Assembly (NCBI GenBank): GCA_951406725.2 | Contig: CATOCA020000014.1 | Span: 1 to 64,000 of the forward strand | Length of the DNA: 64,000 bases | Origin: Octopus vulgaris | Taxonomy: Eukaryota | Direction of reading: 5' to 3' | Shown here: positions 2,987 to 59,444 of the stretch, piece after piece | Layout of the letters: each line of letters starts with the position of its first letter | Numbering within the stretch: the stretch's first letter is position 1 | The notes under the pieces: model-generated | Database searches by the model: none | Told to the model about the DNA's origin: nothing | Seen by the model: only the letters and a program-made list of their open reading frames with translations | Made by a program: the position numbers and the translations under genes

Positions 2987-9450
<6,464 letters not shown>

Positions 9451-21421: not shown

Positions 21422-21610
21422 CTTGTATATCACCCTTCAAACGGAGTGCTTGGGCTCGATTATTATAACCAGAAGACAATTGCGGAGCAAGTTGTATAGC
21501 CTGAGTAAACATGTGAATTGAAGAATCTAGGTTTCCATCTTCAGCTTCCTGAACTCCTCGAACCTCCCAAGACTTAGCTTCTTGCTCAAAAGCAGTCAAT
21601 ATTTTAGGTT
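21422..21610 (-). CDS. TTC36: TTC36 coding exon 2 (189 bp), TPR motifs
   Basis: tttcag|AA CCT...CAA G|gtaaac encodes AKSWEVRGVQEAEDGNLDSSIHMFTQAIQLAPQLSSGYNNRAQALRLKGD, containing the TTC36 signature YNNRAQAxRLxGD. Confidence 0.92.
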
Positions 21611-32759: not shown

Positions 32760-32886
32760 CTTCATTCGAGTTAATTATTTCAATATCTTCGGTAGTGTTG
32801 TGCGGATTTTCAGGATTGAAAACTCTATTAAGCACTGCCGTGTCATAGTCGCTGATTGCTACACGGTCGCTTTTCTCTTCATGCAT
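32760..32886 (-). CDS. TTC36: TTC36 coding exon 1 (ATG at 32886; 127 bp)
   Basis: MHEEKSDRVAISDYDTAVLNRVFNPENP matches TTC36 N-terminal DQAVLQAIFNPDTP. The donor GAA G|gtaacc is in phase with exon 2. Confidence 0.85.
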
Positions 32887-33009: not shown

Positions 33010-33050
33010 TTTTTGATTGGACAAAAGTTATTGTGGGCGGGGCGTCATTT
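33010..33050. promoter_or_regulatory. Putative promoter, possibly bidirectional: CCAAT box and GC box between TTC36 and the TICRR-like gene
   Basis: gattgg at 33015-33020 (CCAAT on the minus strand) and gggcggggc at 33035-33043, about 130-150 bp upstream of the TTC36 ATG. Confidence 0.55.
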
Positions 33051-33357: not shown

Positions 33358-33699
33358 AATAAATTTTTTGATTCTGGAAAACTTACTGAACATCACAAAT
33401 TCAACGATTTCAAACTTAGACGTTTCGAAGAATTCGAAAAAGAATTACAAAGAGAGTTCGAAGGTGATGGTTCCAGCGTGCCGAAGGTCAACAGTGGAGA
33501 TTCTTCCGAAAGGAGGAAGTCAAACACTCCATCAGCAGCTGAATGTTTGAAAAGGACTTTATCCTACGCTGTCTACGACTTCCATTGGGAAAGTCCAGAC
33601 ATCACATCTCCTGCCAGGAAGATCGGAAGGAGTAGTATTCGGTCTTCCAGAAAACACAGTGCCGTTGTTTCAAGTGAGATTTCTCCACACAACCTTGTA
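33358..33699 (+). pseudogene. TICRR: TICRR/Treslin-like exon 1 remnant, truncated at both ends
   Basis: KFFDSGKL..DFKLRRFEEFEKEL..YDFHWESPDITSPARK..HNLV matches human Treslin KFFDSQG..DFRELGSRSWEDFEEEL..DYQWDRPEITSPTK..NAV. There is no in-frame ATG upstream and the frame stops at the palindrome junction. Confidence 0.8.
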
Positions 33700-33789
33700 T
33701 AAGTAGTTATATGCTTATATTATCCATTATAGTAATATTTGTCTGTTGAAACCTGTTTTAAGGCGGTCAATAGTTTAATTAAAGATGTA

Positions 33790-33838
<49 letters not shown>

Positions 33839-34983
33839 GTGTATATATACATGTGTATACATATATATATATATATACATGTATAGACACATCTTTAATT
33901 AAACTATTGACCGCCTTAAAACGGGTTTCAACAGACAAATATTACTATAATGGATAATGTAATGGATAAAATTCAGACAAACTTACCTCTTGCTGTCAAA
34001 AAAAGTGGATTAATTCTCAGCAAAACATACTGTTATGCTAGACCAGTGGTTTTCAACCAGGGTTCCGCAAGAAGTTGCAAAACTGCTAAAATCGGCAGTA
34101 ATTTTTAATTCTCCTGTGCAGATATGCGTGCATAAGACTATTAAATTATTGCACAGGGGTTCCTCGAGCCAGTGGAATGTTTGAATTACGCTCTGTGATA
34201 GCGTCAGGTTCTAATTTTTGCTTCTGATCTCTCTCTGTGCCGCCCTCTCTATCTCAAACTAATTTTTGTGTAGGTGGAGGTGTGGTGGGGAGACAGATGA
34301 ACAATGTCTCATGAACCATTTCTTAAACATACACGATATAGTCTATAAATTTGGGATGTTTTTGAAAGATAATATATTTTATCATCAGAATATATATACT
34401 TTCTCACACTACAATTAAGGTATATTTATTTTAAATCGTTCATCTTTTCCCGCCCACAACAAAACTTGGCGCGAAAACTTTTCTAAATATCAGCAGAATG
34501 AACAACTGAGATAGAGAGGGGGTGGGCAAAGAGAGATCAGAAGCAAAAATTAGAAACTGAAACCACACAGCGTAATTCAAACATTCCACTGGCTCGAGGA
34601 ACCCCTGTGCAATAATTTAATAGTCTTATGCACGCATATCTGCACAGGAGAATTAAAAATTACTGCCGATTTTAGCAGTTTTGCAACTTCTTGCGGAACC
34701 CTGGTTGAAAACCACTGGTCTAGCATAACAGTATGTTTTGCTGAGAATTAATCCACTTTTTTTGACAGCAAGAGGTAAGTTTGTCTGAATTTTATCCATT
34801 ACATTATCCATTATAGTAATATTTGTCTGTTGAAACCCGTTTTAAGGCGGTCAATAGTTTAATTAAAGATGTGTCTATACATGTATATATATATATATAT
34901 ATACATGTGTATATATATATATTTATATATACATGTGTATATATATAGACATGTGTATATATATATATATATATATACATTAT

Positions 34984-35036
<53 letters not shown>

Positions 35037-35133
35037 AGATACATCTTTAATTAAACTATTGACCGCCTTAAAACAGGTTTCAACAGACAAATATTACTAT
35101 AATGGATAATATAAGCATATAACTACTTATACA
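33696..35133. repeat. 1.44-kb nested palindrome (foldback): arms 33696-34256 and 34507-35133, each arm containing its own hairpin
   Basis: tgtataagtagttatatgc... is the reverse complement of ...gcatataactacttataca. Inner hairpins lie at 33719-33958 and 34803-35110 with (TA)n loops. Confidence 0.95.
34044..34717. mobile_element. Non-autonomous hAT (Charlie/Buster-like) element with long inverted arms
   Basis: Termini cagtggttttcaacc...ggttgaaaaccactg. The flank gtctagca resembles the nTCTAGAn target, but the two flanks are inverted rather than directly repeated. Confidence 0.65.
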
Positions 35134-36565
35134 CACATACAATAAATACAGACACACACATTAGTCAGACATATAGCCACATATACACACACTGCAAGAA
35201 TATATTTATTTATAAAGTTTAAACAGAACATGGAATGAAATGTATTTATTTATAAACTTTAAACTGAACTTCAATTGTTTTATAAGCCTAACGGCGAACC
35301 TCACGCAAATACACGAAGTTGACGACTTTCACTTCTGACAGCTAAAAGCATGACAGTATGCCAAATCTTCTTTTGCCCAATGATTTGTTCACACTTCAAT
35401 TTACTATCTTCTAGAAATGTTTCTTTTCTAAATTATTGATTTGTTATTTTTTTTTCCTTGTGAAAATTCCGGGGGAGGGGGTTACCCCCCTTTCCGGAGC
35501 AATTCCGGACCAAAATATGGGATTTGCAGCATATTAGGAGGTCAGGGTACTTGATCCCACGCAAAAAATCCGAGTTTTTTTTTTTTCTTAGTGAAAATCG
35601 TGCGGGTGTTAATCTGTAATTTTACCGTCAATTCTGACCTTTCCCCACCTAAAATTGCGGGCCTTGTGTTGACTGGATTAAAATCTCTCTGAAAATGCTC
35701 AACTATTGTTTTTCATAAAGCATTTATCTTCGTAAGTTTTGTGTCAATTATGATGTATTGGGATAAATATATTGATTCTTAAACCAGAGACCTTTTTCTA
35801 CCACCTACAATCCACACACACACACTTTTAAAAAAAAAAGGTCTATTACTTCAAATGTTAATGGTTTCTGTTAAGACTCAGCAACTTTTAACGAGTTCTT
35901 GACTAGAATTTGGTTTGTCAACTGTTAATAACTTTCAGTTCTTTAGACGTTCACATGATTGGGTAACAAGGCTAACGTGGGTGAGTAGAGGGGCTTATAC
36001 GTGTCACTCGGCTAGCTAGAAATAGCAGTCAAATTACTCTCGGATCCATACTAAACCTCTTTAAAAGAAAGAGAGAAGGGCGTATTCAGTAAAGTAGTCC
36101 AAGAAAAAATAAGTGAGAGTAGTTGGTCACGATGTAAAGATCATGCAGTTGTTCAGTCTAGGAGCCCAATAACAAATCAACTTATTTGTTTATGAAAGAA
36201 ATCGGTACTTGGAGAGTGAAAACGTTTTTTTCTCTCTTTTTGTTTTCTAAACTTTTCTCATTGAATACTTTCCCTCTTTATTGTAGTCCTGTAAACTCCT
36301 TATCCACTTTTTCATGCTTGCATATGTGTCACACGGAATTTGTAAAAGCAGATTTTCTACGACTGGATGCCCTTGTTGACAACCCCTACCTGTTTCCGAG
36401 CAAAGTAACTGATCCCCGTGGCTAGACATGTTTTTCACGGAAGACGAGAAACGAACATAATCTATATGACATGGTGTCAACACCAGGACACATTCTGTAT
36501 ATATATATCATCATCATCGTTTAACGTCCGTCCGCCTTCCGTGCTGGCATGGATGTATATATATA

Positions 36566-37687
36566 CTCTTTTACTTGTTTCAGTCGTGACTGTGGCCATG
36601 CTGGAGCACCGCCTTTAGTCGAGCAAATCGACCCCGGGACTTATTCTTTGTAAGCCTAGTACTTATTTTATCGGTCTCTTTTGTCGTAAACACAGCATCG
36701 GTTGCCAAGCGATGTTGGGGGAACAAACATATACATACACACACTCACAAATATATATATATATATATATATGGCATAGTTTCGGTTGGATTTCCGTCGA
36801 TTTCCGTAAAAAACTTTTATTTTTTTACATAAGTAATGAGAGCGAAAGAGACTAAGAGGAAGCGATTTTACGACGAGAAGGTTTCACTTTGAAGTCGGCC
36901 TGTGTGTGTTTGATGGGGTGTGGGAGACAGACAGTATGTTGTGTAAGTGAAGTGCTTCTGTTAGTGTGTGTGAAGAGACAGACATACATATACACATACA
37001 CCGAGTAAAAGATTACTATGAATCGGCCATACATACATACATACACACACACACATACATAGATACATACACACACACACATACATACATACATACATAC
37101 ACACACACATACTTACACACACACACACACACATAGATACATACACACACACACATACATGCAGACATACATATACACATACACCGAGTAAAAAATTACA
37201 CTGAATCGACCATACATACATACACACATACATACATACACATACACACATACATAGATACATAACATACACACACACACATACATGCAGACATACATAT
37301 ACACATACACCGAGTAAAAAATTACGATGAATCGGCCATACATACATACATACACACACACATACTTACACACACACATACTTACACACACACACACATA
37401 CATGCATACATACATATACACATACACCGAGTAAAAAATCAGTTATCTCTCTCTTTCACACATTACTCTCTCTGTCTCTTCGCACACACTAACAGAAGCA
37501 CTTCACTTACACAACATACTGTCTGTCTCCCACACCCCATCAAACACACACAGGCCGACTTCAAAGTGAAACCTTCTCGTCGTAAAATCGCTTCCTCTTA
37601 GTCTCTTTCGCTCTCATTACTTATGTAAAAAAATAAAAGTTTTTTACGGAAATCGACGGAAATCTGTGCTACGACATGCGAAACTTC

Positions 37688-37762
<75 letters not shown>

Positions 37763-37912
37763 GACGGGCTTCCTTCAGTTTCTGTCTACCAAATCCACTC
37801 ACAAGGCTTTGGTCGGCCCAAGGCTATAGTAGAAGACACTTACCCAAGGTGCCATGCAGTGGGATAGAACCCGGAACCATGTGGTTGGTAAGCAAGCTAC
37901 TTACCACACAGC

Positions 37913-37916
<4 letters not shown>
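36566..37916 (-). mobile_element. tRNA-derived SINE interrupted by a TIR element
   Basis: Minus-strand head gtggctgtgtggtaag (A-box) ... ggttctatccc (B-box) at about 37860-37915. Body and tail at 36566-36740; a similar tail occurs at 50870-51120. Confidence 0.75.
36773..37690. mobile_element. Non-autonomous DNA transposon with about 200-bp TIRs, inserted in (TA)n
   Basis: 36789-36982 is a nearly perfect reverse complement of 37472-37664. Termini are ggc...gcc with (TA)n on both sides. The interior has four accgagtaaaa-anchored repeats. Confidence 0.85.
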
Positions 37917-37961
<45 letters not shown>

Positions 37962-38351
37962 CACATATACACACACACACACACACACACGACTGATTTT
38001 ATTCAATTTCCAGGTACCCAATAAACTCAAAATGTCATGTAATGGGATAATAGTGATAATTCAGAGATTTAAAAGAAATAAGGATGATTATAGTTGGAAG
38101 GGCAACTCTTCTGAAACAAAAAGTATTTAGTCCCCAATACTTTTTGGTAGCAGCAACATTAGCATTTTGGATATAATTCATCTGTTTTTGTGGATCATAG
38201 AATCATCAGTGAAGAACGTGTAGAAGTCAGTTATGTCTACTAAAAAAAAATAGCAACATCATTTAACGTCTGTCTTCCTATAACAGTTGACTACAATGCT
38301 GCTATGCCAGTCATTGGGTATAATACCTTTCTATACATCCTGATTAACTAT

Positions 38352-40825
38352 ATGGGTGAAGTGTATCAGACTGCCAGAAGGGAAGCTAGGAGGCAGGTTC
38401 ATTTAGCCATAGGAGAAGCAGATAAGAAAAAATCTGCCAATGTTCTGCGTCGTGAGGACGAAAGAATTAAGGCATTTCGTGTTGCAAGACAGTGTGTGAG
38501 AGAGAATCCTGATGTGGTAGGAGAGAAATGTGTCCACATGGATGATGGCTCACTTGCATTTAATGAGGCTGAAAAGAGAGAGACTTGGAGAAGCCACTAT
38601 GAAAGGTTGCTGAATAAAGAAAATGAATGGGCGAAAAAGAGTCTGCCGAATGTCGACCCAACAGAGGGACCAGCTATCCGAGTTGACAGTACCTTGGTAG
38701 ATAAGGCAATTAGAAGTATGAAGACAGGGAAAGCCCCAGGCCCATCAGGAATCACTGCAGAGATGCTCAAAATATCTGGCAGTGTCGGCTATAGCCTAGT
38801 CACCCGTATTGTAAACCAGGTGATACACAAAGGAGTCATTCCCAATGACTGGTGTAGCAGCATAATAGTTAACTGCTACAAAGGTAAAGGTGACACTTTA
38901 GATATAAATAATTACAGAGGTAACAAGCTGTTGGATCAGGTAATGAAGGTCACGTAGAGGGTCATAGCCCAACTGATTAGGGAGAGAGTCAGCTTGGATG
39001 AGATGCAGTTTGGTTTCATGCCAGGGAAAAGCACCACTGATGCCATATTTCTGGTAAGACAGCTGCAGGAGAAATACCTAGCCAAACATAAGCCCCTGTA
39101 CCTGGCTTTTCGTTGACATGAAGAAAGCCTTTGACAGGGTCCCTCAATCCCTTATCCGGTGGTCAATGAAGAAACTAAGGATAGATGAATGGTTAGTGAG
39201 AGCTGTGCAAGCCATGTACAGGGGTGCTGTAAGGTGAGGGTTGGCAACGAGCACACTGAAGAATTCAGGGTAGAGGTAGGGGTCCACCAAGGTTCAGTCC
39301 TCAGTCCCCACCTATCTATCTTAGTCCTCCAGGCAATAATGGAGGAATTCAAGACAGGATGCCCCTGGGAGTGCCTCTATGCTGATGCCCTTGCACTAAT
39401 TGCTGAGTCACTATCAGAACTGGAGGAGAAGTTTCAGGTGTGGAAACAAGGATTAGAATTGAAGGGCCTTAGAGTCAACCTAGCTAAAACCAAAGTCTTA
39501 ATAAGTAGGAAAGCAGGCAAACCACAAATCCCTTCAGGTAGATGGCCCTGCTCGATCTGTTGTAGAGGCATAGGTAGAAACTCTTATAAGATGTACTAAG
39601 TGTAAACTATAGACACATAAGAGGTGCAGTAATATCAAAGGAAGGCTAACTAGGAAGATAGTTTTTGTATGTGGCAGATGCTTGGGAGCAATAAACACTG
39701 AAAATGCACTGAGAACAACTTCCGCCACATTCCAGGGAGGAAAACTAGAAGTGGTTGATAGCTTCCATTACTTAGGTGACCAAGTCAGTAGCAGGGGAGG
39801 GTGCGATAAAAATAGCTTGGGCAAAGTTCAGAGAGCTCTTACTTCTGCTGGTGACAAAGGACCTCTCGCTCAGAGTAAAAGGTAGACTGTATGACATGTG
39901 TACGAACAGCCATGCTACATGGCAGTGAAACATGGGCTGTGACTGCTGAGGACATGCGTAAGCTTGCAAGGAATGAAGCCAGTATGATCAGATGGATGTG
40001 TAATGTCAGTGTGCATACTCGACAGAGTGTAAGTACCTTGAGAGAAAAGTTGGACCTAAGAAGCATCAGATGTGGTGTGCAAGAGAGACGTTTGCGCTGG
40101 TATGGTCATGTGGCGAGAATGGATGAGGACAACTGTGTGAAAAAGTGCCACACCCTAGCGGTTGAGGGAACCTGTGGAAGAGGTAGACCCAGGAAAACCT
40201 GGGATGAAGTGGTGAAGCACAACCTTCAAACCTCACCAAGGAAATGACTAGCGACTGAGACTTTTGGAAATATGCCGTGTGTGAGAAGACCCGGCAAGCC
40301 AAATGAGACCATAATCTGAAGGCCTATGCCAGGGGCATTACCAGCCCTCTTATGTGTACCTTTTCCTTCTTTGGACACTAAAACTCTGCTTGCGAAGACC
40401 TGTTGAGGCAAGTGAAATCAAATTCGATGACTGGCGTCCGTGCTAGCAGGGTGCAAAGAGAACCGTTCGAGCATGATCGTTACCAGCGTCACCTTACTGG
40501 CACTCGAGCCCCGTGCAAGTAGGGTATTGAGAGCACCATCCGAGCGTGATCGTTACCAGCATCGCCTTACTGGCATCTGTGCTGGTGGCATGTGTAAAAG
40601 ATTTGAGCAAGGTCGTTGCCAGTACTACCTGATTGGTTTCATGCTGGTGGCACGTAAAAGTACCCACTACACTCTCGGAGTGGTTGGCATTAGGAAGGGC
40701 ATGCAGCTGTAGAAACTCTGCCAGATCAAGATTGAAGCCTGGTGCAGCCATCTGGTTCGCCAGCCCTTAGTCATTCGTCCAACCCATGCTAGCATGGAAA
40801 GCGGACGTTAAACGATGATGATGAT
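38352..40825 (+). mobile_element. 5'-truncated, degenerate RTE LINE with a longer 3' UTR
   Basis: Close protein similarity to the 9577-12898 ORF, with frameshifts, stops and YADA in place of YADD. (GAT)n tail near 40813. Confidence 0.92.
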
Positions 40826-41029
40826 GTTGTGACTAGGCTGTATCCTACTCTGCCAGATATTTTAAGCATCTTGGAGGTAATTCCTGATGGACTAAGGGCT
40901 TTCTCTGCCATCATATCCTAAATTGCTCTACCTTCTATGCTTCTGTCAACTACAATAGCTATTTTCTTTATTTGGTTCACATTGGAAAGACCTTTTTTTC
41001 TTCCACACATTATCCTAATAGCATTTCAT

Positions 41030-41850
41030 AGTAGCATTCACATCTATTTTCCAAATCACTAATATTAAATGTTCCATCATCCATCCAAACACTTCTTGCC
41101 CACAACATGTTGATTCCCTCTGATACACTGTTTTACAATCTCGATCATTTCATGCCTCTGATGTCATCATGCTGCAGAACATTGGCAGACCTCTTACTTT
41201 CTGCTCCTCCCTTTGCTCTATATATACCTGTTGCCTAGCTTCTTTTCTAGCTACTTTAATTCTTTGCAGCCTCCATTTTTCTAGTGTTTCCAAGCCTGTC
41301 TCTTAGTTTTAATGACCGTTCACCTCATTGCTCCACCTATTTCAGCCAGCTACACATTTGATCTGTTGCTCAAATGTGATCATTTCTCTTCTATATTATA
41401 TGTCTCTATCTCCTCATCATCAGATGCTTCAATTAGTACTTTTCTGCATTTCTGTCTGTTCATTGTATTTTTAAGCTTCCGTAACATCCTTTTCCAAACT
41501 GGTTGTTTTATATCTAAGCCTGAAGTCACTAGCCACTAACCTTTGTTGAGTTGTACATTCTTCACTCAAAAATGTACAAGCATCTGTCTGTCCCATTTTC
41601 TGGTGAAAATGTAGTCAACCTGGCTTGTGTACCCACAAGATTGATAGTGATCAGATAAATGGTTGGTTTCTTGAAGTTAATGTTACAGGTCATCTAATCA
41701 TTTGCATCAAAGCTTTGATCCCTCCTCAATTCTAGGACCAAAGTTTGTGTTTCTGTGTACTCTATGGAATCCAAGTCCCAATATGTTTGTTGAAGTCTCC
41801 AGACATTCATCATCAAGGAATGTGTGTAAGGGCTTCATAAAATTGGTCTG
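41030..41850 (-). mobile_element. Old RTE endonuclease-region fragment
   Basis: The minus strand near 41590-41700 gives CNINFKKPT..LIT..SQVDYIFTRK. Confidence 0.6.
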
Positions 41851-43095
41851 TTGTACACTCATCTGTGTATGTATATATATTTATATATATACATACCAAC
41901 CCATGCTAGCATGGAAAACAGATGTTAAACAATGATGATGATGATGACATATGCATATATTGTATGTGTGTGTGTGTATATATATATATATATACACACA
42001 CACATACATACATGCATACATGTGTGTGTGTGTGTGTGTGTGTGTCCTTGTATTCATATAACATGACAGTTCCGAACATGCGTCATTGCCATGCTAGTGA
42101 AGTCATTTGTTTTCAGTCTTCTGTGAAAAACATGTCTGACCATGGGGAAATTATTATTTTGCTTGGAAACAGGTGAGGGTTGGCAACAGGAAGGGCATCC
42201 AGCTGTACAAAATCTGCCTTAATAAACTCGGGCAAGCATGGAAAAGTGGACAGTCAAATGAAGATGATGATAACATCATTAATTTTAAATCTGTTTTTCC
42301 ATGCTATCATGGGTAAGATGGAAGTTTATTTGGGACACCATTTTAGGGCTGGATGCTCTTTCTGTCACCACCTTTTAACCTGTTTTCTTGTATGGTAAAT
42401 GTGAGAGATCAGATATGGCCTGTTTGAACATAAAACAGGTAGAATATTAGGGCAGAATATGGCCAGTTTCCTTCCACCAAATTTTTCTCATTAGATATTG
42501 GTCAGCCTCTAGCTATGGTAGAAAATAGCTTTGCTGCTGCACAGACTGAAGTCAAACCACATGGCTATGACATGGATTTATTAACCACAAGATATATCAC
42601 ATAATGATACCTTGAAGAAACATCAATGTGGTCATTTGACCTGGTAGAAAAACAACCAAATGTCCTACAAATCACATCTGCCTTAAACAAAGAAGGACAC
42701 ATTGGATAATGTAGTTCTAGATACCCTTCTAAAGACTGGGAGCTCACAGCTGGAATGCTTTTGGTCATAAATTTGCTTGGTTGACTTCAGAGTTAAACAA
42801 CAATCAATATATTTATACTAGTGAAGTTATGTCTCCCATAGTCAAGTAACCAAATTACATCTTAACCTCTATCAATAATTAAAATTGTATAAATTGTATG
42901 TTAAATAATTTTAGTACCTGTTTTGTAAGAAATAATGAGATAACTTAGTTAAGATAATGTTTACTTAGAAAAAGCATGTGGATTGCAGAATTAATAAATG
43001 CTCAGCCAAAATGTGTTGCTTTATCCACTGTACCCTGCTGCCTGTGAAATTAGGATTCACTTTCGATGCTCTCTCTCTCTCTTTCTATCTATCTA

Positions 43096-43134
<39 letters not shown>

Positions 43135-44851
43135 ATGATGATGATATATATATATATATATATATATAAATATATATATATATCCTATTCACTGCATTAC
43201 ATCACCCATGTAATGAGTGATGACATTAGACTTGTGCATATGCCACCAACATCCTTAACACCCTATCTCCCTTTCATTCTCTCTTACTCTCTTTGTCACC
43301 ACGCCATGATAACTAAAACCATGGGCACTCTGTCAACTGGTTGGCAAATGAGTGGTAGTAATGGAGGTTTGATAGGATCTCATCTAGTGTTGGTAGCCAG
43401 AGTAAAGAGCACCCAATACACTGTAAAGTGGTTGGTGTTGGGAAGAGCACCTAGCTGTAGAAACCATTCCAAAATGGAACATGCAAATGAGATGTGATCC
43501 TCAACAACTTAGAATTACAGTCTGTGCTGTATAGAATGCAGTCCATCCTTAGCAACATAGAATGCATTTTATGGAAAGTGGATGTGAGATGGTGATGACA
43601 ATGACATCATTGTTGTCTTTTTGTTTTGAGTTCAACTCTTACCCAGATCCACTTTGCTTTCAATCCATCTAGGGTTTATAAAGTAAGTGCTAGGGTCAAT
43701 GTACTCAACTATTACCAAGAAAGTAATAACTCAGCATAGCCAATATATTTTGAAACTGTATTACAACAACTAGAATCACTTTTTCAATCCTCAGTCAACA
43801 CTTACTTGAGACTAGAAAAGTGAAATATAATCTTCCACTAAGTTATCCCCTTTCTTGTAATATGTGAAGTTTCAGCATTCAAATATAAATTTGAACTTTT
43901 TTTTTTTTTATATATATATATATATATATATCTACTTTGAAGCACAGTCACCATCCTCATTTAACATCCATTTTCTGTGTTGACATGAGTTGGATGGTTA
44001 GTAAACTGGGGAGCTGCACCAGGTTCCAATCTCATTTGGCATGGTTTCTACAGCTGGATGCCCTTCCTCATGCCAACCATTCCAAGAGTGTAGTGGGTGC
44101 TTTTTACACACCACCAGCACAGGTACCAGTTGTGAAACACCATCATTAGCCATGACTTCTCAAACACAGTATATTGCCAGAGGTCTTGGCCACTTGTCAC
44201 TGCCTCTGTGAGGCCCAAAGTTGAAAGGGTGCCTTTTACGGGCCACCCAGCATGGGTGCCAGTTACGCAACACTGGCATCAGTTGCAACTACAATTTCCT
44301 GTGGCTTGATGGGTCTTCTCAAGCATGGTATACTGCCCAACGTTCAAAGGGTGCTTTTAATGTGCCCTCAGCACAGGAGCTAGTTATATGACACTGTTCC
44401 TTAATGCTTTTGATACAAACCTGTCCAAGACCAACTCTGGTTCCTTAATACAAACTTGAGCTTTCAGATCACTCTGTCAAATATGATGCTTATTTATTCA
44501 CATTATTTTTTAATTAATGCTGCAATATTTCGTAACTTTAAGATTTTGAGGATATGGTTATTTTTAGAATGGCCTTGTGGACCAGATCTTGCTGGTTTGA
44601 ACATAAAACAGGTACAATATTTAGTTTAAATGCAGAAGGGTTAATGTGATTTAAGGACCTTCCCTCAAAATTTCATGTTAATTTATGTTCCAAACTCTAA
44701 AGTTTGTTGCTATTTTCAAAGTTAGTGGAAATAACAGCAGTGCATTTCAAAAGCAATCTAGCAACAAAGAGGTGAAGAGTTTGGTGTGTGTATGGGAAAG
44801 TTATAAATAACAGCAGTGTTCAATTTCTTTTAAATATCTTAATCTTTTTAG

Positions 44852-45302
44852 ATTTCCAGGGAAATGGCAGATTCAATCAATATTGTATCTGAAGCTTTAA
44901 CTCAACTTGGAGGAAAACTTATTCCATTAGATGCCTTAGTAAATACTGGCAAAACATACTGGTCCTCTGTACATACAGTTACAAGGCAGATTGAGGAAAA
45001 GTCTTCTCTAACAAAAAATGAACATCCAAAACCAAGTGAACAGCCTGCAGGTTTCCAAAGTATGAGTGGTACAGATGATAAGGAAGACACACCAAAAATC
45101 AATGATATCCCTCATTCTCCAGATAGTATTGGTAACATATGTTATAATCAACCATCAAGATGTATCCTCCCTGTAACCTGTTTACTTGACTATTTCATCT
45201 CCAAACCAAACAACTCTAATGTTACACCAGTTAACAATTCCAGCCAAATTTGCAACCCAAGTAGCTTAGGCTCCATTCAGGCTAGATTAACTTATCACAA
45301 AG
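44852..45302 (+). CDS. TICRR: TICRR/Treslin-like internal exon
   Basis: ttttag|ATT TCC AGG...CAC AAA G|gtaagc. IVSEALTQLGGKLIP resembles TVCELLHHGGGTVLP, and ILPVTCLLDYF resembles MLPTDATLNRL. Confidence 0.75.
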
Positions 45303-46410
45303 GTAAGCTTCTCACTTAAATATTATTGTTCGTTTTTACATTTATTTTCTTTCACAGTTGATAAAATATCCTTGTTCCTTTTTGTAGTTTGTTTCTACAG
45401 TTAACAAAATAAAGAAAGGGGATAACTTAGTGGAAGATTATATTTACTTAGTAAAAGGTGGGTGGATGGTAAAATTTGTCAATCAGAGGTGAAGAAAAAT
45501 CTTGTTTGTATCTATTGTTCTATGCTGCCTGTGTAGTAAGAGATAGCAGTGGGCTTCTCCTCTCCACTGTACTGCTCTGCATGTGTAACTAGAGATGGCA
45601 ATGAATTTGTCCGTTTCTCATCTCTCTGTCACCTTCTCCTGTTCATTGCACTTTGTCCATTCAATGAGAGATAGCATTGAACTTATGCATATTCCACCAC
45701 CGTCTCGATCACTCTACCTCTACCACCATCAAGGCACCTATGTATGAGGAACTGTTCTTATCTGATGCTTTTCATCATCACCCGTCTTCACTTCCTCTTC
45801 TCAAGCCACTTGCTGTTTATACCTACCACCGTCTTGCTCCATCTCTCATCTTTATTACCAGTCATCATGTGTCACTTAATGATCATCCTCCAAAATTTGT
45901 GGGTTGTACTTTTGTTAGAACTCTATTTCATTATATTATATCGAAGTGGTTAGTGGAAGAAACAGTAGATTAAATGCCTTACAGTACTGACTTACATCTC
46001 TATACATTCTAAGTTCAAATCTCGCTGAAGTCATTATAATGAACTGTACTCTTCCATTAAATGCCTGAGCTTGGACCAATGTTTAACAATCAATATTTCC
46101 ACAAACTTTTTAAGATTGCATCTGGCAGACTCGGTGGCATTTTGTCTGTCTTTACTTTCTGAGTCCAAATTCTGCAGTGGTAAACTTTACCTTTCATTTT
46201 CTTGTGCCGATAAAATAAATACCAGCTGGTTAATGTAATCAACTGAACTCCTCCTCCCAAAATTGCTGGCCCAAAAAATTAGAAACCAGTATTTCCATGA
46301 ACTGTGGTCAGGCGAGATGACAAAGGACCAAGGTGTCTGGTGCCTTGCTGTACTGAAGAAGACTCATACTCTGCAGAAGTGTTAAGATCAGTCCTTCTGG
46401 TGGTGTAGAG

Positions 46411-49248
46411 CAGGGGTCTCCAAAGTTTTCCAGCGGAGGGCCACATTGCTGAATTTTTAAAGCTACGGGGGCCAAGGTTCTAAATTATTTATTTTACCAA
46501 AATAATATAAATAAATAGTGAATTAATAATTAAAAAAGGTTATTTATTCAGTACATAATCACAATGTATATAATATCAGTAACAATCAACATGTTTTTTT
46601 AAACTTTGATCAATAGGGGAAACATGAAATTGTTTCATTTCTGACAAAATTTTGTCCAACTGAGGTTCAAAATGAGTGGTTCCAATAACAAGCAATGCAT
46701 TTAAATGTTCATCAGACAATTGTGATCTGTAGCAGGATTTTGTGTATTTCATCTTTGAAAAAGTCTTCTCACACAAATATGTGGTGCCAAAAACTGAAAT
46801 GAATTCACAGGCAAACCTCCTTAAATGAAGAAATTGGTCGGATGGAAGGCATTTGTAGAATTCAATCAAATTTCCCTCTTTATATTTGTCCTTCAGGATG
46901 TCATTGGATTGCAAATCAATAACTTCCATTTGTAACTCAGAATTATAGTCTCCAATAACAGAGTTAAATGGATTTTCAAAAATTCTTAGTTTTGAAGAAC
47001 ATGCATCAAGATCAGAAAAACGTTCTTCAAACTGTTGTTTCAAAGCTAAAATGACATCTTGAGCAAACAAGTTTGGAAATGGAGTGGCAGCTTCCTGTCT
47101 ATATTTGTCACATCATGAAAAATGAGTAAAGCAGCTTCTTGTTAACTGACTTTCAAATAGTATTAATTTCTTACGAAAAGCTTTCACCTTTGAGTACAAA
47201 TCACAGATGAGTGAAGTTTCACCTTGTATCCGTAGGTTGAAATCATTGAGATGCATAGTTAAATCGGCTGAAAATGCTAATTTCCAGAGCCATTCACTGT
47301 CTTTGAGCAACACCTGTGAATGGTTTTTCTCATTTAAAAATATTTCAATTTCAGTTCGAAGCTCAAAAAATCTAGCCAGAATTTTTCCATAGCTAAGCCA
47401 TCTTACTGAAGTATAGTAAGGTAGGTCTGGAAACTCAGCATTCATTTCCTCCAAGAAATCATGAAATTGGCGATGTTTGAGTCCATGAGATCTTATGTAG
47501 TTAACAGTGGAAATCACAGGATCTAATACAGATGATAAATCAAGATGCTTTCCACACAGTGCTTGCTGATGAAGAATACAATGCAATACCAAAGGTTTCA
47601 ATCCACCGGAATTCTCAATTACTTTGTTAATTTGCCCAACTAAGCCCTTTTTGGTTCCACACATATTTCTGCCACCATCTGTTGTTATGCATTTTAGTTT
47701 TTTCCATTCCAAATTATACTCAGCCACTGACTTTTCCACTTCTCTAAAAATATCTATGCCTGTTGTTGTTCCATGCATGCTGTGCACAGATACAAGTTCC
47801 TCAGTAATCTCAAAATTGGCATTTATTCCTCTGATGAACAATAACAATTGGGATGTGTCTGATACATCAATTGACTCATCAAGTGCAACAGAAAAGCATA
47901 CAAACTTGCTGGCTTTGTCTTTTAGCTGTGATTTAATATTTCTTTCAATATGTTCAACCCTACGAGCAACAGTGTTCGCAGAAAGAGTAATTGCGGAAAA
48001 TAAATCTACGTTTTCTGGACACATTTCCTTAGCTACCTCATTCAAGCACTTTTTAATAAGTTCACCATCTGTAAATGGCTTACCTTTCTTCGCCAAAAGG
48101 TTAGCAACATGGAAGCTTGCTCTTGTTGCTCTCTCTTTTTCTACAGCCTTCTTCTTGAAAACAAACTGCATTGATGATAAATTCTTCTTTAATTTGTCAA
48201 ATTTCTCTTTACGTAGCTGTCCAATGAATTGGTAGTACTGTGATGAATGCTTTTTTTCATAATGTCTCCGAATGTTGTACTCTTTAAGTACTGCAATTGT
48301 GTCGGTGCATATAACGCATAGTGCCTTGTTGTTTGACTCTATGACAAAATAGTCTATGTTCCATTGTTCCTTAAAAACTCTACACTCAGAGTCGATTTTT
48401 CGTTTTCTTCCTTGAGCTAACATTTTTACCATGGGTCGACAGATTTTGCTCGACGATATATGTAAAAGGACGAAACAAGTAAAAACAATATTCACAGGTC
48501 ACTCGATACGTGCATTCACTTCGGCAGCGACGACGACAAATGACTCACACTTGTGCACAACGAAAACGCCAAGTCTGTGCTGACTGACGGAATGCGCATC
48601 GAACTTTACTCCACGCTGATTGGCGACTGCACCAGGATTAGAAACCACCACACAACGTCAGGCTCAACCCTCTCTATTCATCGCTCGTGAGATGTAGGTA
48701 ACATCGATAAATCGATATTTGTCTTCTTTTATTATACTAGGCACGGGACTTTTATTAACGTCATACTTGTCGTATCTGCTCTCTCGACAGTTGACGGAAT
48801 AGGTTGACTTTTCTGCGACATCAATAAAGCTAGAAATTGAATCTCTGCTTCATTGTAAGCAGCACCATCCATCTCACTGACAATCGCCTATTATCTAAGA
48901 TGAATGATAGGTAGCTCCATAGCGAAGTTAATTCATTTTATGGTGGTTCTGATGGGTCAGTTAAAACGGGGGAGTGGAAAAGAACCTATATTTACACTAA
49001 AGTTTAGTGTATAAATTTTTAATTCGCCGGCGCAATTTAAAGACATTAATTGATGGCAAATCAATTAGCGTCGTCTTGCGTCTATTTGCTGTACTATATT
49101 TGTCAAACGTATTAAAAGGGGTGTAAAGTATATTTGTTTTTGTATGATTTCGGCAAGGCTTGTTTTTCGACATTTGTTTTATAATTTTGGAGGACAGCTC
49201 GGCGGGCCGGATTAAAAACCTTGGCGGGCCGTACTTTGGAGACCCCTG
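46411..49248 (-). mobile_element. Full-length hAT DNA transposon (SPIN/Buster group)
   Basis: Perfect 16-bp TIRs caggggtctccaaagt / actttggagacccctg. Exact 8-bp TSD gtgtagag at 46403-46410 and 49249-49256. Confidence 0.96.
46576..48432 (-). pseudogene. hAT transposase (about 618 codons) with a single in-frame TGA at 47113-47115
   Basis: RKRKIDSECRVFKEQW, BED-like CVIC..RRHY..H, SVALDES, TTDGG, HCILHQQALC, VRWLS and FGTTYLCEKTFS. The two ORF pieces are in the same frame. Confidence 0.93.
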
Positions 49249-49954
49249 GTGTAGAGCATTCATGATGATGCCATGTAAAAGCAGCCAGCCATAGAAACCA
49301 AGCCAAGTTCAGACTGGAGTGTGTTGTAGCTTGCCAGTTCTGGTCAAACAATCCAACCCATGCCAGCATGGACAATGAACATTTAATGATGATGATGTGA
49401 TAATATATTAGCTTTAATATTAAATTAGTGTCCCATTACCAGTGTATTTCTTGCCATTATTAATAATGTAATGCCTTTTCATTTATTCACCTGTCTGGAA
49501 CTGCCCCTGTCTCTATAATACAAACTTCCTATTTTAAAGTGATCTAAATTAAAACCTTTCATCAAAATTTCCTAATAATTAATGTTCCAAACACTATCTT
49601 AATAATTACAGTTATTTTACTAAATTCTTCATTATTTAAAAAATTGAAACGCAGACAGAACTACAGTAACAAAAGAGGTAATAAACAAACAACTATTTGC
49701 TATGCATTAACGATAATTGATGTTGAAAGAGAAGGCATTAAATTTCACTACTTTTATTGGATTCAATTTGATTCAGTTGCCTACTGGATGAAAACCTCAG
49801 CATGTTCTCTCCACCAATCACTGTCTGATGTGGAGGTCATGAATTTGAACTTGAGATCATTACTCCTATTGTATAAACTATTAAATTCTGAAGTTTTAAA
49901 CTTTCATTCTCATCTTTAAACTCTATTAACTTGGTCTTTCTTGCTGTCTTTCAG

Positions 49955-50024
49955 ACGAACAGGTTCAAGATTTGTGCTCTCTGCTACTTGTGCCTTCTAA
50001 CAATTCTTTTAAGGAAACTTTAAC
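49955..50024 (+). CDS. TICRR: TICRR/Treslin-like short internal exon (70 bp)
   Basis: ctttcag|AC GAA CAG...TTA AC|gtaagt is in phase with the previous exon. DEQVQDLCSLLLVP resembles KEIQETWTVTLEP. Confidence 0.65.
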
Positions 50025-50869
50025 GTAAGTAATCTATTCTATGAATATTTATACTTCAATGTATTTATTTATTTAATTTGTTTGACTTGCAGACTAGAAT
50101 TGTTTTCTAATTTATCTTTCTATCATTTAAGTGGTTTTTTTATTCGGTTTATACAAATAGAAGCAAGCAAACTAATTACGTCATGCATATAATTGTAACA
50201 AGATTTGAAATGAGATTTTAAACTATAGCCCAGCACATTCAGTCACAGATTTTAATGAAATTATATTACTTTCTACAAATGGGAAAAAAAATTCCTTGAT
50301 TCAGCTTTCATGTATTTTAGTTTCACCTTACCTTTATATAACAAGAAAAGTCAATTCACTATATGAAGTCAATATTGCTAGCATTCCATCAAGCAAAGCC
50401 GAAAGCTACATTTCTGTTGATAAAGTCATTCGAAGTTATTTCCCTTGTTGTTTTTTGCTCTTTTTTTTTATAGGTTTAGTTCTCACTTCAGCATTATAGT
50501 GATTTTTTTCTGACAGCGAATAAAGCTCGTTAATTTATTTTATTACTTACAAATGTGATCAGTGTCTCTTCGAAATTGAATGATCGGTCAATCTTATTTT
50601 TTAGCACTTCTTTAAGTTTTTATGAACACTTCTGAGCACTTATTTGTTTTAGCATGGAATTTTAAACCCATCTCTTCATTATGACTTTTTTAAAGACAGT
50701 CTTCAGATTTTCAAATTTTGAATCTGCTAAAGTAAATTAAACACAAGAAATTTTCTTGTAAGAGAAAGTTAATAGTATTAAGATATCTTGATCCAATGTG
50801 GTATGGTTGTATTATATACTAGCAAAGATACCCGGCATTGCTCGGGGTTAAAATGGCATAGTTTTTTAT

Positions 50870-51360
50870 TGTTTTACTTGTTTCGGTCATGTGGCTGCAG
50901 CCATGATAGAGCATCACCTGTCGTCAAAGAAATCGACCCCAGGATTTATTCTTTGTAAGCCTAGTACTTATTCTATCAGTGTGTTTTGCCAAACGGCTAT
51001 TTTATGGAGACGTAAACACAACAACATTGGTTGTCAAGCGATGGTAGCGGTACAGACACACACAAATATACACATGTATACGACAGTCTTCTTTCGGTTT
51101 CCATGTACGAAATCCACTAACATATAGAAAGGAACACAGAAGGTGGTGAGCTGGCAGAAACATAAGCACGCCTGGTGAAATGCTTAGCGGTATTTCATCT
51201 GCCACTATGTTCTGAATTCAAATTCCGCTGAGGTTGATTTTGCCTTTCATCCTTTTGGGGGTCGATTAAATAAGTACCAGTTACGCACTGGGGTCGATAT
51301 AATCGACTTAATCCGTTTGTCTGTCCTTGTGTGTCCTCTCTGTGTGTATCCCCTTGGAAC
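50870..51360. mobile_element. Two adjacent SINEs (minus-strand 50870-51120; plus-strand 51141-51360)
   Basis: The first matches the 36566 SINE tail. The second matches the units of the array at 54645-55330 (gcctttcatcc..gtcgattaaataagtaccag). Confidence 0.7.
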
Positions 51361-54128
51361 ACAGAAATAAACAGGGAGAGAAATAGAAAAAATGGCTAGC
51401 GATCTATCATGGCGAATGCCAGGCAGAGGGGTCACACAGGAGAGCTAAGAAGAAGGGGAGATAATAAAGTAGTGGTGATCCCAAAACGAAGGCGTATGTG
51501 AGAGCATGTATGTGACCTTGATATGTGCATGTGTAGGTGTGTGGATGATGGTGTAGCTGCTGGGAAGTGGTCAGTGCTAGTGTGTGCGGTGTGGTGTCTA
51601 AGGGGTGGGATGGAACATATAGGGATGGTGGGGTTGGAATGTGTAGGGATGAAGGGTGAAAATGAAAACGCAGTGCTTTCAAATAAAAATGTCTTGTATT
51701 TCTTTGCACCAAATTCTGCTGACAATCTCTTGTCACTCTCATTAGAAATGTTGTGGACCAACGATTGTCCCATTGGAAACATGTTACTAACATTGCCTTT
51801 GTTCAACAAATGCAGTCATCATAATTTAAAATCCATCATCCATGCTGGCATGAGCTGGACAAGTTCTGATGGGCCAAAGGACTGCTTTGGCATGGATTCT
51901 GTGGCTGGATGCTCTTCCTAATTCCAACAACTTCACAGTATGTGCTGAGGCCATCAAGAAGTTTGCAAGGCTATGAAGATGAAGTGGGGTGGGATGCAAA
52001 GTTTTTAAAAACAAAAAGTGGAATAGATATGTTTTGAGACTGGGTATTAAGAATTGAAAGGAACGTTATATGTAATACAATTAAATCCAGAAGGTTCTGG
52101 AATAGAGTTGGTTTGATCAAAATCATTCAGAACTAGCTGTAATTTAACAGCAGCTTGAAACCTCAAGTATTTTCTTACTGCTAATGCAGAAGCCCAATTT
52201 TTCTTATATCAGTCGCTGTTAATACAGTTAGGAATCCCAACCTCACCTGTACAGGTGAAAATTATTTTTTTTTTCATTGCGTTACATGCAATTTTTTAGG
52301 TGCTGTATGGCTTAATGGTTAAGGAGTTGGCTTCGCAAGCACATGGTCAGGTATTCAATCCCACTGTGTGGTTTCTTAGATAAATGTTATTTTCTAAAGC
52401 CTCCAGTCAACCCATACCTTGTGACTGATATTAGGAAGGTAGTAACTGCCCATTAAGTGACTTGTACTTGTAATTCAAATGGTGTGACTTCATCCTATTT
52501 TGTGTCATACTGGTTCTGAGAATTACATTAAGGGTACATATGTCTGTGATTTGACTGCTTGCTCACTTACACATTAATTCAAGAGCAGGTTATTCAGTTA
52601 GTCAAACAAGTGAATCCTCCTTGTCAAAGGACAAAGATCAACCACCTCCACATACAGTTTGATTTCCCAATCATTATCAGGTGTTTCATTAGTACCAGGC
52701 TCGATTTGAACTAGAAACCTTTATTTCTAAACTAAAAGTAAGAACAGCATCAACCACCAGAGTACTGATTCATTATCATCATACGTCTGCCTTCCATGCT
52801 GACATGGGTTGGTCAGTGTGACAGGAGCTGGCCAGACAGAAGACTGCACTAGACCTCTGCATCTGTTTTGGCATGGTTTGTATAGTCGGATGCCCTTCCA
52901 AATGTCAAACACTGGCAGGAATCACCAAGTAACTTGCAAGGCAAAGAATCTTTGAGAGTGGGGGGCATTCGAGGAGGTGATCTTGTATCAAATGATGAAA
53001 GATTAAAGTGTGTTCCATGTACTTTAGAAATAAAGGTTCTTAGTTTGAATCCAGTCAGTAATATACCTGATTATGATGAGGTCAAACCAATTGAAATGTA
53101 ATTGTAAATATCAAAATACGTTGGACCTTTAAAGAATAGAGTGATTTGGAAAATTATAAACCTTTGAAATTTTCTTGATAAAAGTTTTTTTATTATTGAT
53201 GTTGCCTTATTTTAGTGAAAGAGATTGTTTTTAGTTGAATTTCCTTCAAGCACAATAACTGTATAATGTGATTAAGATTTGTTTTTGATGTCATTAAACA
53301 TTATTGCAATATGAGCTGTTAAGTGGCAGATGTAATGGAGATATCTGCTACAGATAAAATGTCTGAAGAATGGAAGTATGTCATCTGCATATATTTGTAT
53401 TGGTTTATGGTTATTGATGAAGGGTGAGATGGAAAATGAACAGATTAATGCACGAGAAGATATGGTCCAGCTTGTGTAGTCATTTTGGATCCATGTAATT
53501 AATTTTGGGCTTGTACTTTAGGAAAAGGTCTGACCTGGATGCTTTTATGTTATATTGAGTAAAATAGCTTTGGTGTTTTGACATGTATTTCAATCATTTT
53601 GTTTTGTAGATTACCAATTAATTTTAGTATCTTTGAATGTACTGTTAGTGACTTCAAGAGAAGAAATTTTCAAGTTTTGTAAGGATGATAGCACAATAAT
53701 TAACAAGGTCTGAATGCTTTTCTTTCATGTGGGTGAAACAAGATGGAAATAGAAAAGATTAGAATATGAATTAGTTCTGGACTGCATTGATGATAATAAT
53801 GAGCTTGCTGCTATGGCATATAGCAAACCTGGGCAACCTTTTCCAAGAAATTAGTTGCATGAGACATGGCTCATCATAAGGTAGGCTGCACTATTAAAAG
53901 AATTCAAGGTAATTTTTCACTTGATACACTATTCAGAAAGTTCTGTCTTATAGTAAGTAGGAAGGAAGATTGTCCAATGTTACCAGTCCATACTGACTTT
54001 CATAACAGCCTATATAGTATTTTATAGTTAATTCTATATATTTTATCTCATCTGAAATGTTTGAGTAGGATTTTTTTCCTTTTGAATTCTTAATTTATTC
54101 CTATAAAACTTTTTTTTCTTTTTTGCAG

Positions 54129-54544
54129 TAGAAATAACTTAACAGATCATGGACAAACACAATGAACACAGCTTAGATAAAATGATGCCTCCTTTTGAAT
54201 TTGTTGTTGAAAATCCTGAGAAACTGCCATCCAATTCTTCAGCTTCCACTTCTAAAAATAAGTTTTTAACTCGATCTACACAACAGCCATTATCATTACA
54301 AATGGAAATATATGGTTATCTCGAAACTTCTGATCTCAACAACTGCTCCGATCATGTGTTTTTCTGTACACCACTTTCAGAACATTTAACCTTGTATCCA
54401 ACCAGTTCTACTCACATTAAGCAATCTCTGAGAACAGCACACAAAGGAACTTCACCAAAGAAAAACATCAAAGAAAGAGCATCCTCAAAAATAGCCTTGT
54501 TCCAGAATTTACTCCACAGTTTGACTAAAACTAATTTTCGCTTG
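54129..54544 (+). CDS. TICRR: TICRR/Treslin-like internal exon (frame problem in the first 35 nt or so)
   Basis: Strong acceptor ttttgcag| and donor TTG|gtatgg. IALFQNLLHSLTKTNFRL resembles LLFQQLVSRLTAEELHL. A TAA in the main frame at 54140-54142 implies an indel or an alternative acceptor at 54145. Confidence 0.68.
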
Positions 54545-54626
54545 GTATGGCATAATAATAATATTTATTCTTTGTGTAAGGTGTTGAGCTAATGATTCTG
54601 ACAGCTCATGACCCTAAAGTTTGTCA

Positions 54627-55345
54627 ATGTTAATTCTGTGTATAAGGCAGCAAACTGGCAGAAATGTTAGCATGCCAGGCAAAATGCTTAGCAGTATTTC
54701 GTCTGTCTTTACGTTCTGAGTTCAAATTCCGCCAAGGTTGATTTTGCCTTTCATTCTTTCAGGGTTAATAAATTAAGTACCAGTTGTGTACTGGGGACGA
54801 TCTAATCAACTGGCCTCCTCCCTAAAAGTTTCAGGCCTTGTGCCTGGAGTAGAAAAGAATATTAATTCTCTGTATAAAGGTGGCGAGCTGGTAGAATTGT
54901 TAGCATGCTGGGCAAAACGCTTAGTGACATTTCGTCTGTCTGCACATTCTGGGTTCAAATTCCGCTGAAGGTCGACTTTGCTTACATCCCTTTGGAGTCA
55001 ATAAATTAAGTACCAGTTGATCACTGGGGTCAATGTAATCGACTGACACCTTCCCCCTAAATTTCTGTCCTTGTGCCAAAATTTGAAACCTATATTAATT
55101 CTGTGTATAGTGACAAGCTGGCAGGATCATTAGCAAGTCAGGCAAAATGTATAGTGGTATTTCATCCATTTTTACATTCTGAGTCCAAACTATGTCGAGG
55201 TCAACTTTGCCTTTCATCCTTTTGGGGTTGATCAAGTAAATATAAGTTAAGTTAAGCACTTGGGTTGATGTAATCGATTTATCCCCTCCCCCGAAATTGC
55301 TGGCCTTGTGCCAAAATTTGAAACCAATATTAATGCTGTGTGGAA
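54627..55345 (+). mobile_element. Three head-to-tail SINE copies separated by a repeated spacer of about 16 bp
   Basis: Units of about 230 bp, each preceded by ttaattct(g/c)tgtata. Confidence 0.85.
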
Positions 55346-55907
55346 TTAGGATGGTGAGCTGAAGAAAAACGACAGTATTATTTATGTGAACTGTTTTAAT
55401 TCTTTCTGAATCTGTTGAATCAACAATGCTGGGGGAAATAAAATGGGGTTTGGCAGTTGTTAAGTCTATTTCATCCCAAAAGCTGTTTTTTTTTTTTTTT
55501 TTTAATTAATGAAAATCACATTTTCACATGAAATGTATCACAAATATCACATCAAGAAAGCTTGTACTGTAGAAGTCAAGAGAGGTAAATATTCTGTCAT
55601 TTCCTAATGAACCAGCAGAAGGACCTAGAGTCCACATGGGATAAATAGTGAGTGGAAATGTCAATTCCACATTGAAATTTAGCCTGACCAGGGACCCTGA
55701 AAGTGTAATCCCCTTTCTGTGACCTTGAGACAATCCAAACCAAGGGACACCAATTGGCTTACCTGTTATTGGATTCTTTTTGTTAGTGTGATTTCAGAAA
55801 TATACTATGAATGTGTGATATTGCATAAAAAAGTGAAAATATTTTATGTAAACACATGTTTACACTTACAGTCACATCTTACTTAATTCCTTCTTGTTGA
55901 ATTTCAG

Positions 55908-56169
55908 ATGGTACAAATTAAAATTGAAGAGGAAACTACACCTTATATAGGTGTCCTAGAACCTATCACTATCAATCTAGCTGCTGTGACAATTCTTCCA
56001 ATGGGCCTCAATAGACAACTGAAAGAGCTTTTCCCTGTTTTTCCAGTTTATGGACATTGTTCTAATTCAAAGATTTCTAGTGCTTGTGATTTTGACAAAC
56101 TAGATTCCGTTTTACAGCGATATTCCACCAAGATAATGCATTCAAAACATTTCACCAAGGATCAGTCAG
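55908..56169 (+). CDS. TICRR: TICRR/Treslin-like internal exon
   Basis: atttcag|ATG GTA...TCA G|gtaaat is in phase 0 with the previous exon. TPYIGVLEPITINLAAVTIL resembles PPITGVISPLSASAMILTV. Confidence 0.75.
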
Positions 56170-56608: not shown

Positions 56609-57812
56609 CATCATCATCATCGTTTAACGTCCACTTTCCATGCTACCATGGGTTGAACGGTTCGACTGGGGTCTGGGAAGCCAGGAGGTTGCACCAGGCC
56701 CAGTCTAATCTGGCAGTGTTTCTACAGCTGGATGCCCTTCCTAACGCCAACCACTCCGTGAGTGTAGTGGGCGCTTTTTGCATGCCACCGGCACAGGTGC
56801 CAGGCGAGGCTGGCAAAGGTCACAATAGGTTGGTGCTTTTTACGTGCCACCGGCATGGAGGCCAGTCGAGGCAGCGCTGGTAATGGCCAAGTTCGGATCG
56901 TTTTTTTTACATGACATCGGCACTGGTATTACAACTGCAATTTCCATTGATTTTTTGATCGATTTCGATTTCACTTGTCTCGACAGGTCTTCGCAAGTAG
57001 AGTTTTGTGTCCCAAGAAGGGAAGGTATGCATAAGTGGACTGGCTACATCCCAGGTAGAGGCCACGGGTTATGGTCTCATTTGTCCTGCCAGATCTTCTC
57101 ACGCACAGCATACTTCCAAAGGTCTCGGTCTCTAGTCATTGCCTTGGTGAGACCTAATGTTTGAAGGTCGTGCTTCACCACCTCGTCCCAGGTTTTCCTG
57201 GGTCTACCTCTTCCACAGGTTCCCTCAACCACTAGGGTGTGGCACATTTTCACACAACTATCTTCATCCATTCTCGCCACATGACCATACCAGTGCAAAT
57301 GTCTCTCTTGCACACAACTGATGCTTCTTAGGTCCAACTTTTCTCTCAAGGTGCTTATACTCTGTTGAGTATGAACACTGACATTACACATCCATCGGAG
57401 CATACTGGCTTCATTTCTTGTGAGCTTACGCATATCCCCATCAGTCATGGCCCATGTTTCACTGCCATGTAGCATGGCTGTTCGTACACATGCTTCATAC
57501 GGTGCCTTTTGTCACCAGCAGAGGTAAGAGCTCTTTGAACTTTGTCCAGGCTATTCTTATTCTAGCAGTTACACTTTCAGCACACCCGCCCCTGCTACTG
57601 ACTTGGTCACCTAGGTAATGGAAGCTATCAGCTACTTCTAGTTTTTCTCCCTGGAATGTGGCAGAAGTTGTTATCTGCACATTTTCAGTGTTTATTGCTC
57701 CTGAGCATCTGCACAAAAAAACTATCTTCCTAGTTAGCCTCCCTTTGATATTGCTGCACCTCTTATGTATCCATAGCTTACACTTGGTGCAACTTATAGA
57801 GTTTCTACATAC
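56609..57812 (-). mobile_element. 3' fragment of an RTE LINE
   Basis: (cat)n tail at 56609. MLHGSETWA..WYGHVARMDE..GRGRPRKTWDEVVKHDL. Same subfamily as 38352-40825. Confidence 0.92.
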
Positions 57813-57817
57813 GCTTT

Positions 57818-59444
<1,627 letters not shown>

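Follow-up and report, generated by a model that had tools for sequence, protein, structure and literature searches.

A partial, intron-containing and probably non-functional duplicate of the Treslin (TICRR) gene in Octopus vulgaris

Introduction

Exons of Treslin (TICRR), an essential replication gene that is normally present in single copy, can be recognized in a stretch of octopus DNA in which the gene is visibly damaged, and the locus raises the question of whether the animal has lost an essential gene or carries a second, expendable copy of it. The stretch analysed here (the window) comprises 64,000 nucleotides of contig C44, which is 96,345 bp long. The initial annotation of the window announced an essential gene broken by four lesions and offered four readings: a decaying duplicate, a disrupted haplotype, a misassembly, or an N-terminally truncated Treslin. 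Its headline is misleading because a complete Treslin gene exists on contig C3, and the decaying duplicate is the correct reading among the four. The window locus is almost certainly a partial, intron-containing duplicate of the complete C3 gene that has no start, is frameshifted, lacks the Sld3 core and is likely to be a non-functional pseudogene.

Results and discussion

Identity of the locus and its complete parent

The peptide encoded at 33307-33699 matches the Pfam profile Treslin_N (PF21854) with 32.6 bits in a profile search (cut-off 26.5 bits), one of six candidate Treslin peptides from the window to do so, and the profile match on which the initial annotation had staked its gene assignment was thereby obtained. 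A tblastn comparison of the window contig with the Octopus bimaculoides protein P0001 reveals five shared collinear segments, from part of exon 1 to exon 5, that are 77-96% identical. The exon-1 peptide has six matches in the animal's own genome: near-identical ones on C44 (the window), C35, C36 and C21, and others with longer open frames on C3 and C22.

The search for a second TICRR locus that had been proposed leads to a complete seven-exon gene on the minus strand of C3 (C3:182,342,150-182,319,395), modelled with P0001 as a guide. Its exons 1-7 (990, 451, 70, 451, 262, 1,638 and 1,139 nt) join to 5,001 nt, or 1,666 codons, with a single terminal stop and no internal stop; the product is 91.2% identical to P0001 over the full length and 99.1% identical to the O. 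sinensis protein P0053 over residues 523-1666. All splice acceptors are AG, and the donors are five GT and, at the first intron, one GC. Intron 1 begins AAG/GCAAGA on both C3 (C3:182,341,161) and C22 and is a GC-AG intron by protein homology, the join of exons 1 and 2 being based on alignments to P0001 and to P0002 of Argonauta hians, not on a spliced contig. The Sld3-Treslin domain (STD) is encoded by exon 6; exon 6 and the Pfam profile Treslin_STD (PF21855) have one match each genome-wide, both on C3, and exons 2 and 5 have six and four matches, respectively. The start of the gene lies ~78 kb from the contig end, and its exon 1 is peculiar in having a 12-nt gap and in reading KLFDS where relatives have KFFDS.

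In human cells, the essential core of Treslin consists of the M domain, STD and TDIN, the STD is needed for replication, and removal of the N-terminal CIT alone has mild effects, if any (PMC8807876). The window copy retains about 30% of the C3 coding sequence, and absent from it are a start codon, a complete N-terminal CIT/vWA region, an in-frame M region, and the STD with the downstream TopBP1-binding region. Compared with Treslin of O. bimaculoides, O. sinensis and A. hians, it has no start, no exon-1 ends, no exons 6-7, no STD and no C-terminal region, and its exon 4 is frameshifted. Origin firing would depend on the C3 gene alone.

The exon-1 remnant and the foldback transposon

Treslin homology begins in the window with a remnant of exon 1 on the plus strand (33359..33695), which corresponds approximately to codons 148-268 of the C3 gene, contains no ATG and has in-frame gaps of 9 nt and 27 nt. 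The absence of a start codon before KFFDS, as initially described, is borne out: the frame has a stop just before 33307 and contains no ATG as far as 33360, and the remnant lacks the initial 442 coding nt of C3 exon 1. Restoration of the 5' end by A-to-I editing or an alternative start is rejected, since what lies upstream of 33359 is not Treslin sequence. The loop of exon 1 at 33463-33484 occurs in three lengths: long (C22 and O. bimaculoides), with a 12-nt gap (C3) and with a 27-nt gap (window). The 27-nt gap is also found in contig 15 of sequencing run X13, with the 9 nt present and with flanks unlike those of the window, and could thus be allelic variation in the working gene and not a lesion.

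At the other edge of the remnant, homology to C3 ends at 33695 and restarts at 35632, with the loss of 647 bp of C3 sequence (187 of exon 1 and 460 of intron 1). The initial annotation thus placed the cut correctly, after HNLV at the edge of a palindrome, but misread the missing text, which is FLFQKCP...WLKHEEK and not FLLxPCP..LLP. The lost sequence is replaced by a left-truncated, Merlin-like foldback transposon (33696..35626, unstranded), which holds both the palindrome and a supposed end of exon 1 at 34718-34774. This supposed end is the one lesion among the four claimed that fails: it matches the C3 gene over 13 nt at most, has a mirror copy at 33987 and is present with 0-1 mismatches in all seven other copies of the element that were examined, as befits an arm of a dispersed foldback transposon, not Treslin.

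Seven further full-length copies of the palindrome stretch 33960-34790, 97-99% identical, are found on C2, C3, C4, C6, C13 (two) and C20 among the 40 candidates scored of 1,171, and their presence on six chromosome-sized contigs rejects the palindrome as an assembly foldback. The whole element measures 2.8-3.2 kb in the three of five wide-flank copies with both ends found, its arms being ~1.4 kb; an 8-bp target duplication flanks two of these three, and GG stands at every end found in the five copies. Target duplications of 8 bp are also consistent with hAT or P elements. Merlin elements likewise have GG termini and 8-bp target duplications (PMC8101967), and differ in their terminal inverted repeats of 24-462 bp from the octopus element, which is non-coding and has far longer arms. 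On its termini and target duplications, the element may tentatively be called a Merlin-type non-autonomous element. Its left part is gone together with the 647 bp of Treslin, which suggests that it inserted in intron 1 and that a one-sided deletion then removed both. The centre of the palindrome (34045-34717) has ends resembling a hAT-type MITE, which we take to be nested in the larger foldback element. Within 29131-32394, a remnant of a Merlin/IS1595-type transposase (DDE_Tnp_IS1595 profile) lies at 31269-31880, beside tandem units of 155 bp.

Exons 2-5, the frameshift and the missing Sld3 core

Intron 1 of the window copy contains ~7 kb of repeat-rich sequence (36773..43725, unstranded) that is absent from this place in C3. 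It is followed on the plus strand by exon 2 (44852..45302; 451 nt, one substitution relative to C3), exon 3 (49955..50024; 70 nt, identical to C3), exon 4 (54129..54544; seven substitutions) and exon 5 (55908..56169; 262 nt, one substitution), the last exon present. Homology to C3 ends on the same strand at 57800..57822 within intron 5, where it runs into a (TA)n tract. Introns 1-5 of the window align to C3 at 95-99%, and the good splice sites initially ascribed to the downstream exons are confirmed, all those of exons 2-5 being intact. Their integrity counts against the pseudogene reading, though a divergence of 0.8% leaves little time for decay. Intron 2 contains a near-intact hAT transposon on the minus strand (46411..49248), flanked by an 8-bp target duplication; the corresponding site in C3 is empty. 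The transposon encodes a Spin-doc zinc finger and a hAT dimerisation domain, and its transposase has one in-frame stop near 47113 that is common to the window and C21 copies.

The frame conflict reported at 54129-54165 is real and consists of a 35-nt frameshift deletion at 54147, flanked by two TCATG repeats. The largest lesion, loss of the Sld3 core, had escaped notice: exons 6-7 (2,777 coding nt) are nowhere on the window contig, in which tblastn detects no trace of residues 763-1672, and searches covering all of C36, 230 kb of the 232-kb C35 and 150 kb of C21 likewise failed to find them.

The exons of the window and C3 differ by 12 substitutions, which is too few for dN/dS; two are silent and ten change amino acids (six on the window side, three on the C3 side and one unresolved). 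Letters that set the window apart from C3 include 45219 A, 54183 T and 54188 C. Because the window-side change at 54393 is also carried by the spliced contig of run X20, and the 27-nt gap in exon 1 by X13, some of the differences may represent allelic variants of the working gene instead of lesions. The 'treslin-like' model of O. sinensis (P0053) begins at Met523, the methionine immediately after the site of the 35-nt deletion; a similar duplicate or a fragmented assembly may have led to a truncated annotation.

Association with TTC36

The Treslin remnant lies head-to-head with TTC36, whose exon 1 (32760..32886, ATG at 32886), exon 2 (21422..21610) and exon 3 (21032..21130) are on the minus strand of the window; the ATG is ~470 bp from the remnant, and exon 4 is absent from the window contig. 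CCAAT-like and GC-box-like motifs at 33016..33043 (unstranded) probably mark the TTC36 promoter. Among the regions examined, TTC36 is whole only on C21 (four exons, 193 aa, C21:996,452-978,094); exon 4 is missing on C44 and C35, and only exon 1 is present on C36. TTC36 is thus also broken in the window contig. Its exon 1 on C35 carries a 3-nt insertion, and a partial match of 81% occurs at C18:64.9 Mb.

The position of the broken copy beside TTC36 in C21-type sequence, together with the absence of TTC36 from the 170 kb examined around the C3 gene, rejects the earlier reading of a disrupted haplotype of the real locus.

Evidence from sequencing-run contigs

Contigs of seven of the 24 listed sequencing runs were compared with the window over 32500-33790 and 44700-56300; such contigs show neither strand, level nor absence of RNA. 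The join at 33359 is bridged by contigs of X5 and X7 (studies P3 and P4, neither of them flagged as a possible source) that extend 56 letters into Treslin, and by an X12 contig that has another organism label and 23 substitutions. The lack of X13 cover at 33248-33335 does not show that this run is without the join. At 33696, X5 extends only 30 letters into the element, one short of the bridging rule, so that this join is not counted as bridged, and the X7 contig continues into an intact exon-1 tail. Within 44700-56300, contigs of X5 and X1 bridge the 35-nt deletion with no differences, and X1 covers the introns continuously in a DNA-like manner. Because they recur in runs from other studies, the 5' join and the 35-nt deletion are not assembly errors, contrary to the misassembly reading.

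Runs X15 and X20, guessed to be RNA, yield contigs of 4.1 and 3.9 kb that skip intron 4 exactly. Since the spacing in these contigs fits the presence of exon 3 and the 35 nt, they extend 2.8-2.9 kb past exon 5, and each has the C3 letter at six of seven listed sites, the spliced form of Treslin seen in these contigs is the intact one. X20 also contains unspliced contigs of low depth that match the window in introns and could derive from DNA, from pre-mRNA of the real gene or from RNA of the pseudogene. In the X12 contig (32588-33414), the listed differences are confined to 32588-33108, the part around TTC36 exon 1, and are lacking from 33109-33414, possibly as a result of recombination or gene conversion.

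Copies, divergence and order of events

The segment consisting of TTC36 and broken Treslin is present once on C21, where it shares 15166-58262 of the window, and a further four copies lie on three small contigs (two on C35 and one each on C36 and C44). Both C35 copies, ~87 kb apart, end in exon 4 at 54182 and then jump to the sequence found at 59449 of the window; the C36 copy breaks at 32257. Over 5,559 ungapped columns from four alignment blocks, with C3 as the sole root, the distance of each broken copy from C3 is 0.76-0.85%, that of the small-contig copies from C21 is 0.50-0.56%, and that among the small-contig copies is 0-0.07% (0-4 sites). All five broken copies are split from C3 by 29 sites, the four small-contig copies are united by 15, and 13 are private to C21. 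From these sites we infer the branching (C3,(C21,(C35a,C35b,C36,C44))), which would correspond to one duplication, a period of shared decay and a very recent multiplication. The duplication of Treslin is itself likely to be recent, because the copies differ from C3 by only about 0.8%.

Another fragment, at C22:50,783,500-50,793,400, was rejected as a second intact Treslin: it comprises only a 5'-cut part of exon 1 in two frames and an inverted exon-7 end with 3' flank. It differs from C3 by ~2% (31 mismatches in 1,616 nt) and lies near the end of its contig, which finishes in CCAGG satellite.

The order of events may be reconstructed as follows: the part of the C3 gene from mid-exon 1 to intron 5 would have been copied, near the C21 tip, to a place beside the promoter of TTC36; this copy would then have gained the foldback transposon with its adjacent deletion, the hAT element, other repeats and the 35-nt microhomology deletion; and the segment of TTC36 plus pseudogene would finally have given rise, by multiplication, to the near-identical copies, two on C35 and one each on C36 and C44. 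C35, C36 and C44 are mosaics of repeated blocks of 15-40 kb that are also found in the first megabase of C21, which suggests an amplified or unresolved chromosome tip.

Alternative explanations

The number of copies is less secure than the nature of the locus. It is possible, though somewhat doubtful, that the pseudogene is real on C21 and that C44, C35 and C36 represent the C21 tip again, as redundant or alternate-haplotype assemblies, which would change the copy number and leave the verdict on the window unchanged. The 0-4 differences among the small-contig copies, their allele-like distance of 0.5% from C21, the mapping of other C44 sequence to C21:32 kb and an assembly gap in C21 ~20 kb past its Treslin copy fit such redundancy; however, the copies are unlike in structure, with their different endpoints and the two on C35 well separated, and five copies are more than two haplotypes of a single locus can account for. 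That the lesions arose as assembly errors in a real Treslin locus is very improbable. C44 is a small contig with long low-complexity tracts, but the same lesions recur on C21, C35 and C36, two of them are bridged in runs from other studies, and the insertions are accompanied by target duplications and by an unoccupied site in C3.

A functional role for the fragment can be pictured in two ways. An N-terminally truncated Treslin that starts at MADS (44864) and works as such is extremely improbable: the mild outcome of CIT deletion in human cells would permit it in principle, but MADS is an internal methionine of exon 2, spliced exons 2-5 read from it reach a stop after 181 aa, and there is no STD exon on the contig to splice to, the single match genome-wide being elsewhere. 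Transcription of the copy from the far side of the TTC36 promoter, giving a short product (for example, 263 aa from the methionine at 54149 through exons 4-5 and into intron 5) or an RNA that regulates Treslin, is improbable. The head-to-head arrangement with promoter-like motifs in between, the intact splice sites, the sparing of Met523 by the deletion, and the overlap of exons 4-5 with a weak Treslin_M match in P0001 (residues 637-691; 17 bits against a cut-off of 27) are in its favour, but both long spliced contigs represent the intact form, six of the ten amino-acid changes are on the window side, and the C35 copies lose exons 4-5 altogether. More speculative still, and very unlikely, would be a young Treslin fragment captured by the far side of the TTC36 promoter, amplified at the C21 tip and expressed as a truncated middle-domain MTBP decoy or regulatory RNA that tunes origin firing by copy number in this octopus lineage. 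The reading as a non-functional duplicate of the C3 gene accords with what the window copy displays: an intact parent elsewhere, introns kept collinear, and disabling lesions in real DNA, as in an unprocessed pseudogene.

Relation to known pseudogenes and significance

Duplicated pseudogenes in segmental duplications near chromosome ends are a known category. The window copy resembles other duplicated (unprocessed) pseudogenes in its kept introns, intact parent, disabling lesions, transposon insertions and several near-identical copies, and the Treslin parent and copies likewise lie near contig ends. There is no difference in kind from the usual members of this class, but here the parent is an essential replication gene normally found in single copy, and the window copy is very young (0.8%) for its number of structural changes. 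No published account of an octopus Treslin duplicate was found in the accessible literature on octopus Treslin, TICRR pseudogenes or duplication, and octopus segmental duplication, in which subscription titles are sparsely represented.

The biological weight of the locus is small, as the animal keeps a complete Treslin, and would be greater only if the copies are expressed. Its practical consequences are more immediate: six near-identical copies of exon 2 invite confusion in annotation, read mapping and variant calling for both Treslin and TTC36 in this genome, and Treslin guides or probes are best aimed at exons 6-7. The segment also offers a datable case, near the ends of octopus chromosomes, of a recent duplication that underwent rapid structural decay.

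Other features of the window

A TA-rich tract of 6.5 kb occupies 2987-9451, and a 450-bp (TA)n tract and an 814-bp poly-A tract occupy 57821-59083; these tracts may be poorly resolved sequence. An open frame of 970 aa on the minus strand (61090-63999) is presumably a Penelope-type retroelement, with a reverse transcriptase and a GIY-YIG-like end.
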